NCBI GenBank assembly: GCA_016840465.1
Contig: JAEOSH010000057.1
Span: forward strand, 1-12,955
Length of the DNA: 12,955 nt
Direction of reading: 5' to 3'
Origin: Candidatus Baldrarchaeum yapensis
GTDB taxonomy: Archaea > Asgardarchaeota > Baldrarchaeia > Baldrarchaeales > Baldrarchaeaceae
Shown: positions 2,805-12,955 of the stretch, one piece after another
How the letters are laid out: every line of letters begins with the position of its first letter
Numbering within the stretch: position 1 is the first letter of the stretch
Notes under the pieces: generated by a model
What the model saw: the letters and a program-made list of their open reading frames with translations, nothing else
Told to the model about the DNA's origin: nothing
The model's database searches: none
Program-made: the position numbers and the translations under genes

Positions 2805-3308
2805 AGCATTCACCCCATGACCTCACGCATTCTAACATTTGTTGCTTACACTCAAGATCGAAATGTGACCTCTTTCCTTTATTAATCTACCGCACAAGAT
2901 TAGCGATAGTAGCTATTTACTACACATACCATCAACCATGATGGGTAGAATGTACTACTAATGAGGCTCATGCATCTTAGTGACCTTTTATAGCTATCAT
3001 CAATCCGTTCCCATATCAATACTTCTTATTACTCCTAGTGTATAGTTTTGCTTGTTTGTAAGCATAATTATCCGACCATATGCATGATGTCATGTCATTT
3101 CTCGATTTTTTCATTATTATAATCTAATATTCAAAGATGCGAAAAATTTAATGTAGAATATACGTCAATTACAATTTTTTCCGTAATATTTAATATAGTC
3201 GTGCAATAAATCCATTAAGCTATCAATTGGTGAATCATTATGTCATTAAGAAGGCATAAACCCCAAGTACCTTCTATTCGTAAACAAATCCATCATTATA
3301 ACTTGTGA

Positions 3309-3563
3309 TAACAACCATGTGACGGAAGTCTTCCGGACTCCCGTGGGGATCTTCCACGAGCAATGAGGTTGTTAAACCGTTCTGACTCTCCGCCACTTTT
3401 GTTGCAATTGACGCGTGCGTGGCGGAGAGCCTTCCCGTCTCGGGGTCCATCGACGGGCTTTCGCGGGGAGCGGTGCTCCGTACATCCATCTGACCCCCTT
3501 CGCTCCGCCCTTTCGGGCCTCCCTCCCTCTCACCGTCCCTCCCACATCCCGGGCGGAGCCCGC
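3309..3563 (-). ncRNA. Candidate structured ncRNA of unknown class (~255 nt)
   Basis: GC-rich island in AT-rich flanks. Stems: 3559-3551/3510-3502 (9 bp), 3479-3475/3471-3467, 3457-3452/3439-3434, 3429-3419/3396-3386 (11 bp), 3374-3367/3316-3309 (8 bp). GAAA tetraloops read on the minus strand; BRE/TATA is correctly placed upstream. Confidence 0.6.
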
Positions 3564-3581
3564 TTAACACAACAGAAGTCC

Positions 3582-3596
3582 TTTATAAGGGTTTTG
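3582..3596 (-). promoter_or_regulatory. Archaeal BRE-TATA promoter (CAAAACCC-TTATAAA) pointing into the GC-rich element
   Basis: Minus strand reads caaaacccTTATAAAggac; the GC-rich stem starts about 22-25 nt downstream of the TATA centre, the expected TSS spacing. Confidence 0.6.
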
Positions 3597-4273
3597 AGGT
3601 TGCAAAGGTGCATGAGGGCAGCAAATGCAACACTATACGTTTCTGCCTCAGCACAATGAAACATATTTCTGATGGAGGATATTACTACCGAAAGGAAGTT
3701 AACCCAAATTGTTACTTAGTTGTTGATAGAGGATAAGTATTGACATCTTGAATTCATAAACCCCGACTATAGCCGCGAATTTGCATTCACGGAGCCTAAT
3801 GGTCACACAGTAAAAAAGAATATCTATGAATACCATCCACGTGGGATATTTATTTGGTTACTGTAAAACTTTCCGGCCAGTATTACCGCTGGCATCCATA
3901 AAGGCTCGCATGGTAACTCCTCTAGCGATGGCCTTCTAACAGGCCAATATCAAGTATAACAGATGACATCACATTAATTAAGAAAATAATGCTTGAAAAT
4001 TCCGAAGATGTCCCCGTGACGGACAAATATGTGGCTACATGGAGGATTTTTGAAGTCGATAATGTTGTTAAGGATTAGAAGTAGTAAGTCTTGCCGCAAA
4101 AAAAGTATTGAGGAACATTGCCTTAAGAATTGAAATGGGAAAATCGTTCAAGGCGAGCGAGGAACAAATTAATATACTGATAAGCTAGTCATCATTGACA
4201 ATCCTTCATTATGCAACTTTCACAAATGAGTTCCAGCGCTTCAATCAGAATCCATACTTTGGAGAGTAGCAAT

Positions 4274-9383: not shown

Positions 9384-9617
9384 CTAAAGGTATCCAAGCG
9401 CCTTGAGTTTCTGCTTTATCCTCTCAACATCTTCCTCGGTAAACGGTTCGGAGGATCGCTCTGCCTCGTGCATCGCAACTATTTCCCTCAGAACATACGT
9501 CACATAATCGCTCACGCTCTTAAATCCCGTGTCTTTGATCAGATCCTTTATTCTCTCATAGAGAGATACTGGTATCGACACTGTTGTGTATTTTCTGCGT
9601 TGCTTCTCTTCATTCAC
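9384..9617 (-). CDS. CopG/ribbon-helix-helix transcriptional regulator with KLKALGYL tail
   Basis: YTTVSIPVSLYERIK...GFKSVSDYVTYVLRE is a typical RHH. GTG at 9617 follows SD AGGGGAG and is preferred over ORF start 9653. First gene of the operon. Confidence 0.88.
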   Translation of the reverse strand: MNEEKQRRKYTTVSIPVSLYERIKDLIKDTGFKSVSDYVTYVLREIVAMHEAERSSEPFTEEDVERIKQKLKALGYL

Positions 9618-9670
9618 CTTGAAAACTCCCCTTGCCCGACCGTGTAATGCCAAATCGTCATGGAACGGAA

Positions 9671-9720: not shown

Positions 9721-9862
9721 CCCTCCTTGACACTCGGACAAAAACCTCTACTCGTTCAGTTGCTAATTCCGTAAAAGTTCTCATTACATCGATGGAAAAG
9801 TGAAATTCCACGAGCAACTTACATGCCGAATATGGAATTTGAAAAGAAGAAAGACATGCAAG

Positions 9863-9940
9863 TGGTGCGGCCGCCGGGATTTGAACCCGGGTTACCGGCT
9901 CGGAAGGCCGGTGTCCTAGTCCAGGCTAGACGACGGCCGC
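9863..9940 (-). tRNA. tRNA-Gly(TCC), intronless, CCA encoded
   Basis: GCGGCCG acceptor stem, D arm, anticodon arm CCGGC-CTTCCGA-GCCGG, T arm CCGGG-TTCAAAT-CCCGG, ACCA end; 78 nt. Confidence 0.97.
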
Positions 9941-9966
9941 ATCATGTGCATAATTATTTCAAGGCA

Positions 9967-9988
9967 GTGAGTTTAAAAATTTACTCAC
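9967..9988 (-). promoter_or_regulatory. tRNA promoter TATA (TTTTTAAA) flanked by inverted repeat GTGAGT-N10-ACTCAC
   Basis: TATA-like box at 9979-9972, about 32 nt upstream of the mature tRNA 5' end; perfect 6-bp inverted repeat around it. Confidence 0.5.
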
Positions 9989-10109
9989 ATGAACCATCCG
10001 GATCATTTGAACGTAGAAAACGAGTATCGCTACCGGATGACAACACCACATTTGGAGTTGTTCATCTTTTAGAGCCAGCCGACCAAGGTCTATTGCTAGT
10101 GGAAGGATG

Positions 10110-10121
10110 AAAAATAAAAAA
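10110..10121 (-). terminator. Oligo-U tract (UUUUUUAUUUUU) right after the terminal hairpin of the ncRNA candidate
   Basis: Plus strand aaaaataaaaaa; archaeal intrinsic termination occurs at oligo-T tracts. Confidence 0.55.
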
Positions 10122-10283
10122 TGCCCCTTCGAGGGGCAGAACTGATCCGCTACCTTCCGTGGCTCCTCAGGGCCCCAGCCCCTTGGAACCCCGGAAGTTC
10201 ACGGATCTTTGAGCCACCTCTCTGCAGAGTCCTCTCGGACCCTACAGTTTGGTGGCACCGTTCCGCCCCTCGAAGGGGCATTT
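10119..10283 (-). ncRNA. Candidate structured ncRNA (~165 nt) closed by a perfect 19-bp terminal inverted repeat; MITE is the alternative
   Basis: AAATGCCCCTTCGAGGGGC at 10119-10137 is the exact reverse complement of 10265-10283. Internal 11-bp GAGA-tetraloop hairpin (10247-10222) and GUGGCUC/GAGCCAC stem. Wobble pairs are G-U on minus but A-C mismatches on plus. TATA upstream and U-tract downstream on minus. Confidence 0.65.
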
Positions 10284-10302
10284 ATTACTATAGTGCAGGG
10301 GT

Positions 10303-10316
10303 CTAATAAACTTTTG
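10303..10316 (-). promoter_or_regulatory. BRE-TATA-like promoter (CAAAAG-TTTATTAG) for the 10283-10119 element
   Basis: TATA centre about 10307 puts the TSS near 10281-10279, exactly the 5' end of the terminal stem. Confidence 0.5.
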
Positions 10317-10440
10317 TATTACTCAACGACTAAGAGAACAAATTTTTATTTTTGTAAAAATGATGCTTGTCATATGCAAAAGTTTATGGTTAATAAATGT
10401 TGACGAAGAAAATTTCGCATGTAATAAAGGAGTAGTGCTG

Positions 10441-11484
10441 TCACGTTGATGCATATCCTCCGTATTTGAATTCTATTTCTCTGTTCAGTATCTGGCAGGC
10501 GAGTGTGGACTTCTGATAGGCTCTTTCCATCTCGATTTCACAATTCCGTCCATATAACGTAATTATGATTTTGTTTTCGAGGGGTTGCACAGATATTTCC
10601 TCTACATTTTGCTCTTGTGAGTAGTCCAAGGCATCGGATATTCTTAATAGTGCTGACAGTTTTACTATAGTGTCCTTGAATTCCTCCTGAAGTTTATTAT
10701 TCTCACGGGGGTCTCCCGCCTTTGTACGGTGATACAATGCGACCCATTTGATAATTTCCACATCTGATGAGGACAGCACTCCTTTTATCGTTTCTTTCTC
10801 CTTTTCTATTAGGTTAAAAGTATGGATGTGGTGATGTGCTTCATCCACTTGGACTCCTATATCGTGGAGGACGGACGCAAATATTAGATGTCTTAAGGTG
10901 TCCTCTTTCAAATCGAGTTGTGCTTTTAATCCGTCAAACAGCATAATTGAGAGTTCAGCAACTCTAGCCGCATGCTCTATGCCTCTTCCGTAGTTATACT
11001 TTTCAGCAAGCTGAAGCACCGTTTCTATTTCGCGAGATTGAGCGACTGATATGAGCCTCTCGAAGAGTTGCAGCGTTCTTTCCTGCTTCCAAGATTCAGG
11101 AAACAGCAAGATGTCCTTTGCCACCTCATCACACGCCTCTTCGAAACTCTTTTTTCCGAAAAGCATGAGGTATGCTGCGGCAATTGTTCTACTCCTGCCA
11201 ATTCCGCCGTGACAGTGTACAAGCACCTTCTTCTTGTTTCTTATTTTATCAGCAATCCACGAAACTATCTTATAGAGCTGTAGCAGGTTGGGGGCTCCAA
11301 AATCAGGCACTGGAGTATGGAGCACTTCGACTCCATGTTTTTTCCACAGTATTGGGTCATATGTGAGTTCATAGGGCTGCACTAGGATGATCACAGCATC
11401 GAATTCTTCCGAGAGGGATGGAATCTCGCGCTTGGATGGTTGAGGGGAAGTTGCAAGTTTACCCTTTATTATCCAGTTGCACAT
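10441..11484 (-). CDS. Fusion: N-terminal Cys-based dual-specificity/PTP-like phosphatase + C-terminal Ppx/GppA-type HD domain
   Basis: PVPDFGAP acid loop and VHCHGGIGRS (CX5R) in the N half; HAARVAELS, LHDIG, HHHIH, ALYHR, LRISDALD in the C half. ATG 11484 follows SD GAAGGTGA (ORF track start 11502). Confidence 0.85.
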   Translation of the reverse strand: MCNWIIKGKLATSPQPSKREIPSLSEEFDAVIILVQPYELTYDPILWKKHGVEVLHTPVPDFGAPNLLQLYKIVSWIADKIRNKKKVLVHCHGGIGRSRTIAAAYLMLFGKKSFEEACDEVAKDILLFPESWKQERTLQLFERLISVAQSREIETVLQLAEKYNYGRGIEHAARVAELSIMLFDGLKAQLDLKEDTLRHLIFASVLHDIGVQVDEAHHHIHTFNLIEKEKETIKGVLSSSDVEIIKWVALYHRTKAGDPRENNKLQEEFKDTIVKLSALLRISDALDYSQEQNVEEISVQPLENKIIITLYGRNCEIEMERAYQKSTLACQILNREIEFKYGGYAST

Positions 11485-11546
11485 TTGTATCATCACCTTC
11501 ACTGTTAGGGGGTCTTAAACGTTGTAGGGCGCACGTTATATTGGGG

Positions 11547-12723: not shown

Positions 12724-12811
12724 CGAGACATCACACGCAGTTGCACATTTAATATTAACGTTCCCAGCAACTGGAGGCTGTTTCATAAATAAATTCAACA
12801 TAAACACTCAT

Positions 12812-12955
12812 GGCTAGGCATCGGCCCGGGGGCGTCGGTCGCTGGTCCGAACGGCGCTGTCCGTCTCTGCCCCCTCGGGCCTCATCCTTTCCGCATCACA
12901 CGCACGTCTTTCCGGTGGCGATCCGCTCCACGTTCAGCGCAAGCGACAGCCACTT
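12812..12955 (-). ncRNA. 3' end of a GC-rich structured RNA, possibly SRP (7S) RNA; truncated by window edge
   Basis: Abrupt GC-rich block ending ...CGCCCCCG-GGCCGAU-GCCUAGCC, which resembles the archaeal SRP helix 1 3' strand, followed by U-rich sequence. No canonical helix-8 motif is visible in the 144 nt. Confidence 0.45.

Follow-up and report, generated by a model that had tools for sequence, protein, structure and literature searches.

The 12,955-nucleotide (nt) contig JAEOSH010000057.1 of Candidatus Baldrarchaeum yapensis (assembly GCA_016840465.1), hereafter the window, carries between a tRNA-Gly gene and a phosphatase gene a 157-nt GC-rich segment whose minus strand folds into a three-way junction with its two ends sealed together in a long helix. 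A first-pass annotation, made from the letters alone, had proposed that this segment encodes an undescribed stable non-coding RNA (ncRNA). The proposal is supported, although not proven, by a promoter, an oligo-U stop, a GC island and a polarity in the wobble pairs, together with negative searches against Rfam and for signs of a mobile element. We consider it probable that the segment is a real gene, present once in the genome and transcribed on its own, whose product is a stable structured ncRNA of an undescribed family, so far found only in one species-level Asgard lineage and acting as a protein-bound scaffold or decoy; this judgement rests mostly on the segment being a real structured RNA gene. 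The coordinates of its parts are collected in Table 1.

Table 1. Parts of the proposed RNA gene (window positions) and two further loci of the same genome (contig and positions)
Feature	Position	Strand	Description
Predicted promoter	10303..10317	minus	purine-rich, B recognition element (BRE)-like ACAAAAG, then TATA box TTTATTAG (10310-10303)
RNA body	10279-10123	minus	157 nt, 64% GC, three-way junction, 61 base pairs (bp), 78% of bases paired
P1 5' arm	10260..10279	minus	RNA positions 1-20
P2 hairpin	10213..10256	minus	RNA positions 24-67; 6 bp, 3x3 loop AAA/AGA, 11 bp, GAGA tetraloop closed by C-G
P3 rod	10144..10207	minus	RNA positions 73-136; 24 bp broken by purine-rich internal loops
P1 3' arm	10123..10142	minus	RNA positions 138-157
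Oligo-U termination signal	10122-10110	minus	AUUUUUUAUUUUU; U tract begins one base past the last pair
Permuted 5S gene	C56:97630-97789		~160 nt, 12-bp GC-rich clamp joining the transcript ends
Sibling element	C81:15517-15683 (L042:1018-1184)	minus	167 nt, perfect 18-bp clamp, 65% GC, ~-92 kcal/mol

Fold, strand polarity and predicted gene boundaries

The computed minus-strand fold is a Y with three helical domains. Its ends are joined in P1, a blunt, uninterrupted 20-bp helix containing one G-U pair, or 21 bp when U10280-A10122 is counted; the first-pass annotation had recognised this end-pairing helix and its G-U pair but had put its length at 19 bp. The distal part of P2 is exactly the hairpin that the annotation had drawn, of 11 bp with two G-U pairs and a GAGA loop. 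In contrast, a GUGGCUC/GAGCCAC stem enclosing two small hairpins, also drawn there, is not the fold, as forcing it gave just -76.7 kcal/mol. Instead, both the minimum-energy and the centroid fold use GGUGGC to close P2, and they draw the 3' part as a single long rod, P3. From its base, this rod comprises helices of 7, 6, 6 and 5 bp, separated in turn by a 3x3 loop (GAA/GUA), a G.A mismatch and a 2x2 loop (AA/GA), and it ends in a UGGG loop. The junction strands are short, with 3 nt between P1 and P2, 5 nt (UCAAA) between P2 and P3 and a single A between P3 and P1, and only 35 of the 157 bases (22%) are unpaired, the longest single-stranded run being 5 nt.

The whole RNA reached -119 kcal/mol compared with -65 +/- 4 kcal/mol for 200 dinucleotide shuffles (z = -12.6), none of which folded as well. 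The core remained significant when the P1 clamp was removed (-76 kcal/mol, z = -10.2), as did P2 in isolation (-30.3 kcal/mol, z = -7.1, 96% of the ensemble) and P3 in isolation (-43 kcal/mol, z = -7.1, 86% of the ensemble). More than the long inverted repeat thus underlies the structure. Between the minimum-energy and centroid predictions only two isolated junction pairs differed, and the fold was the same at 37, 60 and 75 °C; at 85 °C, with -33 kcal/mol left, it had lost only the two innermost pairs of P1. The source archaeon is probably heat-loving.

The arms of P1 have a further property. The initial 15 nt of the 5' arm are nearly self-complementary (GCCCC-UUCGA-GGGGC), and the alternative state noted in the first-pass annotation, in which each terminal arm folds on itself, was computed at -99.7 kcal/mol, 19 kcal/mol above the closed form. 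As an inverted repeat the arms match perfectly for 19 nt, with 93% complementarity over 28 nt, and they are also 81% alike as direct repeats.

The two strands were then compared to separate an RNA from a DNA palindrome. The plus strand folded worse throughout, with -95 kcal/mol for the whole segment, -56 for the core, -22 for P2 and -31.6 for P3, against -119, -76, -30 and -43 kcal/mol on the minus strand. The minus-strand fold holds six G-U/U-G pairs and no A-C mismatch, and all six wobbles become mismatches on the plus strand; the probability that six of six would favour the minus strand is 1/64. A strand-neutral DNA palindrome would show no such bias, and the 6:0 asymmetry thus argues for selection on one RNA strand. 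This bears out the argument from three wobbles in the first-pass annotation and extends it to six.

Predicted signals for transcription flank the helix on both sides. The TATA box that had been read at 10310-10303 is present 24-31 nt upstream of G10279, with its centre ~27 nt upstream and a 23-base spacer before the RNA body; it is a consensus match at canonical spacing, and not a proof of use. Measured by the canonical archaeal distance from TATA box to start, transcription is predicted to begin at the first paired base, within two bases either way, in agreement with the start site proposed earlier. The box (AAAAGTTTATTAG) is of the same type as those of the tRNA genes of this genome (AAGTTTTTAAAC, AAATTTTTAAAC and AAATTTAAAAC), which stand upstream of short leaders. 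At the other end, the helix runs into the U tract, and oligo-T tracts terminate transcription in archaea. The GC content rises to 64% in the RNA from ~40% in its flanks, against 46% genome-wide. The tRNA-Gly(UCC) gene at 9866-9940 (69% GC) lies 180 nt beyond the RNA and has a box of its own. With its own predicted promoter and terminator, the RNA would thus be a separate unit that runs from helix start to helix end. A genome-wide screen for perfect helices of at least 10 bp that end no more than 3 nt from a T run of at least 5 returned this RNA and just three other cases, two of them weakly folding AT-richer stretches and one a tRNA-like gene.

As a separate observation, the promoter core AAAAGTTTAT (10306-10319) is repeated in inverted orientation at 10374-10387 on the plus strand, 54 nt upstream of that core. 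Directed towards the 3' end of the phosphatase gene, this copy might serve as a divergent or antisense promoter.

Copy number, known families and distribution

The RNA is present in a single copy in the 2.27-Mb genome, which is 96% complete with 46% GC. When its arms were searched for elsewhere in the genome with up to 2 mismatches, nothing was found bar one unrelated palindrome, and the flanks (…AGUAAUAAAU / RNA / AUUUUUUAUUU…) hold no direct repeat that could be a target-site duplication; the AAAU/AUUU extension of the ends belongs to the inverted repeat. No transposase gene is closer than a DDE_Tnp_1 gene at the contig end, where the repeat (12790-12955) is unlike the RNA arms. The first-pass annotation had named beforehand a miniature inverted-repeat transposable element as one of the outcomes that would overturn its proposal, and what emerged was a single copy, no target-site duplication, no related ends and no cognate transposase. 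The copy test can discriminate within this very window, as the block at 3300-3600 recurs in at least 15 copies and that at 12790-12955 in about 10, as opposed to one for the RNA.

These two blocks merit a short description. The first, a GC-rich block upstream of a histone-like gene, contains a repeat of ~225-270 bp with 77-98% identity and 16 further matches on 14 other contigs (C57, C39, C71, C82, C69 and C92 among the carriers); being multi-copy, it is taken to be a miniature mobile element. The studied RNA shares with it the GC-rich, structured character and the window, but it is single-copy, has no sequence in common with it and lacks an unpaired 3' guide. The second, a truncated 'SRP-like' GC-rich block at the contig end, is likewise a repeat, the real signal recognition particle (SRP) RNA being on contig C56. 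On a longer contig of the same species (L021) a DDE_Tnp_1 transposase gene spans the corresponding point; the contig breaks inside an insertion sequence.

Membership in a known RNA family was assessed with the 4227 models of Rfam 15, which include tRNA, 5S, SRP, RNase P, C/D, H/ACA and Hgc RNAs, ribozymes and small nuclear RNAs. At gathering thresholds the only match in the whole window was tRNA-Gly at 9866-9940. At E<=10 with permissive filters, the best result between 9950 and 10450 had E = 0.17 and 13 bits against a threshold of 180 bits, which is noise. The scan thus agrees with the first-pass annotation, which had recognised no tRNA, 5S, SRP, RNase P, C/D or H/ACA signature, no family matching even at E<=10. 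A significant Rfam match was the other computable outcome named there as overturning the proposal, and it too did not appear. The RNase P RNA, SRP RNA and (permuted) 5S genes of this genome were all located on other contigs.

Particular identities were also considered and rejected. A box C/D or H/ACA guide was set aside on inspection, there being no RUGAUGA, no internal loop larger than 3x3 and no ACA tail, and the Rfam guide models gave noise. A product of bulge-helix-bulge processing does not fit, as P1 is uninterrupted and the junction strands of 3 nt and 1 nt have no 4-bp helix between them; in the alternative pairing of the first-pass annotation both bulges lie, by inspection, on the same strand, unlike a bulge-helix-bulge. 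No TROVE (Ro60) match was found in the genome to accompany a Y RNA of a Ro ribonucleoprotein, although control genomes did match. A TnpB/IscB omega RNA was rejected as no such gene adjoins, both ends are paired in P1 and the RNA is unlike the multi-copy elements of this genome. No similarity to the 5S gene of this genome or to any other locus indicated paralogy, and no CRISPR array from which the arms could originate was detected in the assembly. The P2 loop (CCGAGAGGAC) was rejected as a sarcin-ricin loop, its motif occurring seven times in the genome; the sarcin-ricin sequence of the genome itself is absent from the assembly.

Comparison with known systems gave likenesses of design. The Hgc RNAs of Methanocaldococcus and Pyrococcus, which are in Rfam, are orphan GC-rich structured RNA genes that form GC islands in AT-richer genomes. 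The studied RNA resembles them as a stand-alone gene with its own promoter, an oligo-T stop, a GC island, a strong fold and a narrow distribution, yet it matches no Hgc family even at E<=10, and to our knowledge a blunt 20-bp end clamp is not a feature of Hgc RNAs. Among eukaryotic and viral RNAs, it resembles Y, vault and VA RNA I in having a length of 100-170 nt, a long terminal helix, a 3' oligo-U tail and a branched or looped centre; VA RNA I, at ~160 nt, is likewise built from a terminal and an apical stem around a three-way central domain, and all of these act as protein-bound folded RNAs and not by base pairing. In contrast to this shared outline, there is no sequence or covariance-model match to them and no Ro/TROVE protein; the likeness is one of design and not of ancestry.

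A further parallel is the permuted 5S gene of the same genome, which is also ~160 nt long with a GC-rich helix joining its ends. However, its clamp contains a bulge-helix-bulge and its halves match a known family, whereas P1 is uninterrupted and the studied RNA has no such partial match. With 5S rRNA in general the RNA shares a three-way junction on a terminal helix, one arm with a purine-rich symmetric loop and a tetraloop, and a core of 117 nt. It differs in having no RF00001 match and no large loop C, and blastn against the 5S gene of the genome returned only 8-nt words.

The distribution of the RNA was then examined. Seven public contigs of the same species, from at least 6 samples, hold the locus; aligned with the window over up to 5.5 kb they show 99.85-99.97% identity, and in all seven the RNA is identical and lies at the same site. 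Across this population 13 sites vary in 5.5 kb, those closest to the RNA being 10294, in the promoter spacer, and 10070. Outside the species no homolog was recovered by blastn in 40 relatives, by a single-sequence covariance model in ~150 sampled Asgard genomes, or by the same kind of model with laxer filters at E<=10 in 39 relatives. A full Infernal search of G002, the closest fairly complete relative from the same order (1.92 Mb, 35% GC, covered whole as 108 overlapping stretches), also found none. The loci around orthologs of the neighbouring phosphatase gene held no RNA homolog, and a scan of the tRNA-Gly loci in the four same-order genomes, aimed at clamped helices and strong folds, yielded nothing. 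Two exact patterns of the RNA had no match in viral contigs, and one 20-mer searched against 185,579 species genomes gave a single chance match, in a Streptomyces. In the metagenomes of the Joint Genome Institute (JGI), one of two patterns had zero matches and the other two chance matches without the fold.

As a control, the same DNA search recovered the SRP RNA in three of four same-order genomes at 67-70% identity (E 1e-27 to 1e-38). The failure to find the RNA while this control succeeds indicates that it is young or evolves much faster than SRP RNA. Public data hold no closer relatives, as the neighbouring genes show: beyond the species, identity falls abruptly, for sulfate adenylyltransferase from 100% to 73% and for the phosphatase from 100% to 43%. 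The locus is not syntenic in the next relatives.

Competing explanations and an end-clamped sibling

A number of points weigh against a functional RNA gene and are gathered here. Since ~0.4 variable sites would be expected in 157 nt at the diversity of this population, the zero observed says nothing about purifying selection, and the searches, having found no homolog outside the species, provide neither covariation nor any other signal of purifying selection. If an RNA is present in one species only, it may be of recent origin, dispensable or selfish. The near-palindromic arms, with the internal reuse of the GCCCC/GGGGC module, also fit an inverted duplication at the DNA level. Lastly, no partner protein was identified, and the neighbouring genes offer no functional clue.

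One explanation would refine, without excluding, the reading as a structured RNA gene. In it the clamp is an end-joining device, and an RNA ligase circularises the transcript into an exonuclease-proof form in which the U-tail makes a dumbbell loop. Such a circle would suit the span of the helix, from the predicted transcription start to the terminator, and it has a parallel in the apparently permuted 5S rRNA gene of this genome, which sits inside a 12-bp clamp. There is also precedent, in that circular forms have been documented for several archaeal ncRNAs (PMC3326292) and an ATP-dependent ligase circularises C/D box RNAs in Thermococcus (PMC9014305). However, neither end of P1 has a bulge-helix-bulge, and the route through splicing endonuclease and RtcB is thus not applicable. 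A primary transcript bears a 5' triphosphate, and ATP-dependent ligases do not join 5' triphosphate ends. The matches to the RNA_ligase family in this genome are borderline (28 bits) and lie in open reading frames (ORFs) of ~620 aa that are possibly DNA ligases or other nucleotidyl transferases, and they do not reveal an Rnl3-type RNA ligase. Circularisation thus appears rather unlikely.

The main alternative that involves no RNA gene, and one that we disfavour as unlikely, is a relic or domesticated form of a miniature transposable element, whose arms would be terminal inverted repeats or hairpins of the IS200/IS605 type and whose promoter and fold would be incidental or derived from a guide-RNA scaffold. 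The 19-nt perfect inverted repeat with arms able to form hairpins is what such a relic might leave, the genome is rich in miniature elements with GC-rich structured RNAs, the block at 3300-3600 being one of at least 15 such copies, and the DDE transposase gene at the contig end is ~2.5 kb away. Against this stand the single copy, arms that do not recur, and a sequence without similarity to the multi-copy elements. The missing flanking direct repeat and the fixation at one locus in seven of seven spanning same-species contigs give no sign of movement, and the wobble asymmetry, the want of a free 3' guide segment as an omega RNA needs, and the failure of both exact patterns to find anything in viral contigs speak likewise against a mobile origin.

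The possibility that the clamped design is used more than once was addressed by a genome-wide screen for perfect, GC-rich inverted repeats with arms of 12 bp or more and a spacing of 70-320 nt. Two contig-end palindromes ranked first, followed by the studied RNA and then by C81:15517-15683, with the permuted 5S gene and weaker cases below. The two palindromes, perfect helices of 70 bp and 26 bp at the starts of contigs (C74:1-141 and C38:1-107, respectively), look like assembly artefacts with fold-back ends. The C81 element, termed the sibling here, has a TTTTATAT box 22-29 nt upstream on the minus side and palindromic arms containing CCCCGGGG and GGATCC. As in the studied RNA, its helix begins at the predicted transcription start, but its T-runs sit 14 nt or more beyond the helix. 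It lies between convergent genes for a ferredoxin-like and a VWA-domain protein, which provide no functional link, and it too is single-copy, with no Rfam match and no relative found. The sibling and the studied RNA have no sequence similarity, and an equivalent clamp screen of G002 found no such element. That two unrelated genes share the end-clamped design suggests selection for such a design in this organism. The further notion that both are first members of an archaeal 'end-clamped' class, whose helix is read by a dedicated end-binding, end-joining or dicing activity and which would be functional analogues of the clamped RNA polymerase III transcripts of eukaryotes (Y, vault and VA-type) or of short-hairpin precursors, is speculative and appears unlikely.

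It is very unlikely that the RNA is a small-RNA precursor, in which the 20-21-bp helix with its 3' U overhang, reminiscent of the stem of a short hairpin or a microRNA precursor, would be cut to load a prokaryotic Argonaute. The length of the helix and its blunt or overhanging geometry are suitable, a Piwi-domain ORF exists at C97:96-326, and the sibling offers a second perfect clamp of 18 bp. However, a search of the 96%-complete genome revealed no RNase III/Dicer-type domain, the Argonaute gene is located on a different contig whose end cuts it short, and no complement of either arm occurs elsewhere in the genome as a target.

Still less probable is a leaderless mRNA for a 43-residue peptide, starting at the ATG at 10281-10279 and ending at a TAG inside P3. 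That ATG follows the TATA centre by ~25 nt, a spacing seen in archaeal leaderless mRNAs, and the frame, read by hand, stays open for 43 codons; but such an open run has an estimated chance probability of ~0.3 at 64% GC, the peptide has no Pfam match, and the start codon would be buried in P1 within the -119 kcal/mol fold. A retron msr/msd RNA, with paired ends, a priming G, P2 as msr and P3 as template hairpin, is suggested by topology alone (a 20-bp end helix directly followed by G21, then two hairpins), which is compatible but non-specific, and it is effectively refuted by a terminator instead of a reverse transcriptase gene after the RNA, by the absence of any RVT_1 match at E<=0.001 in the 96%-complete genome when control genomes do match, and by neighbours without a match to defence models bar two marginal Cas7 matches on an 89-aa RHH ORF.

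Genomic surroundings and proposed mode of action

The gene upstream of the RNA (10441-11502, minus strand) encodes a cysteine phosphatase of the dual-specificity type fused to an HD-type domain III of Ppx/GppA. Orthologs of this fusion occur at 39-43% identity in other Baldrarchaeia-like genomes, none of them with the RNA adjoining. A 95-codon ORF at 9823-10110 (plus strand), called on public contigs, overlaps tRNA-Gly antisense, has no family match and is probably a spurious gene call. Comparison of the neighbours with defence-system and phage protein families gave no convincing match: the RHH ORF (9384-9653) produced the Cas7 matches mentioned above (E 0.002 and 0.0095) and phage matches of unknown function, and the phosphatase gene produced generic phosphatase-domain matches.

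Some further observations concern the RNA and the genome at large. A 23-nt stretch at the apex of P3 (GGaUUCCAAGGGGCUGGGGCCCU) recurs once, with 22 of 23 bases identical, at C71:7856-7878 (L004:1501-1523), where it caps another hairpin, which follows a PIN-domain gene at a distance of 125 nt. The match has an E of 0.001-0.04 for the genome and could be due to chance, a small duplication or a shared protein-binding hairpin; the genes around it have no functional link to the RNA. A genome-wide screen for GC islands returned 521 of them and, at 46% GC, was too unspecific. ARAGORN reported 32 tRNA genes, three of undetermined type, and none for Met, Cys, Trp, Tyr, Pro, Lys or Asn, probably because many tRNA genes are interrupted or rearranged beyond its reach.

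Returning to the reading as a structured RNA gene, we propose that transcription would start within one or two bases of G10279 and stop in the oligo-U tract, and that the transcript would fold as a Y in which P1 clamps its own 5' and 3' ends. The clamp may shield both ends from exonucleases at high temperature, favouring stability in the cell, and would keep the ends adjacent. With a single base between them, P3 and P1 would tend to stack coaxially as one rod ~50 layers long, from which P2 would project sideways, and the GNRA loop of P2 could dock on P3. Non-canonical G.A and A.A pairs can form in purine-rich internal loops, where proteins typically bind; the regularly spaced loops of this RNA (GAA/GUA, AA/GA, AAA/AGA and G.A), together with the GNRA loop, may be where a protein recognises it. 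Given that just 22% of the bases are unpaired, in runs of no more than 5 nt, antisense or guide action by base pairing is excluded and the RNA would thus act as a folded object, most likely, as modelled here, as a protein-binding scaffold or decoy.

Confinement to one species makes the RNA possibly a young or dispensable element. Asgard archaea are the archaeal group closest to eukaryotes, and, as metagenomes are the only source of data on nearly all of them, very little of their ncRNA repertoire has been explored. In this setting the present candidate is cleanly delimited by a promoter, a 157-nt body and a terminator and has an extreme, strand-specific fold, and the sealing of both ends in a blunt 20-bp duplex is a design without counterpart among catalogued archaeal families. 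If the RNA is expressed, the questions that it raises for the biology of this organism would be which protein recognises it and whether the clamp serves thermostability, circularisation or processing.

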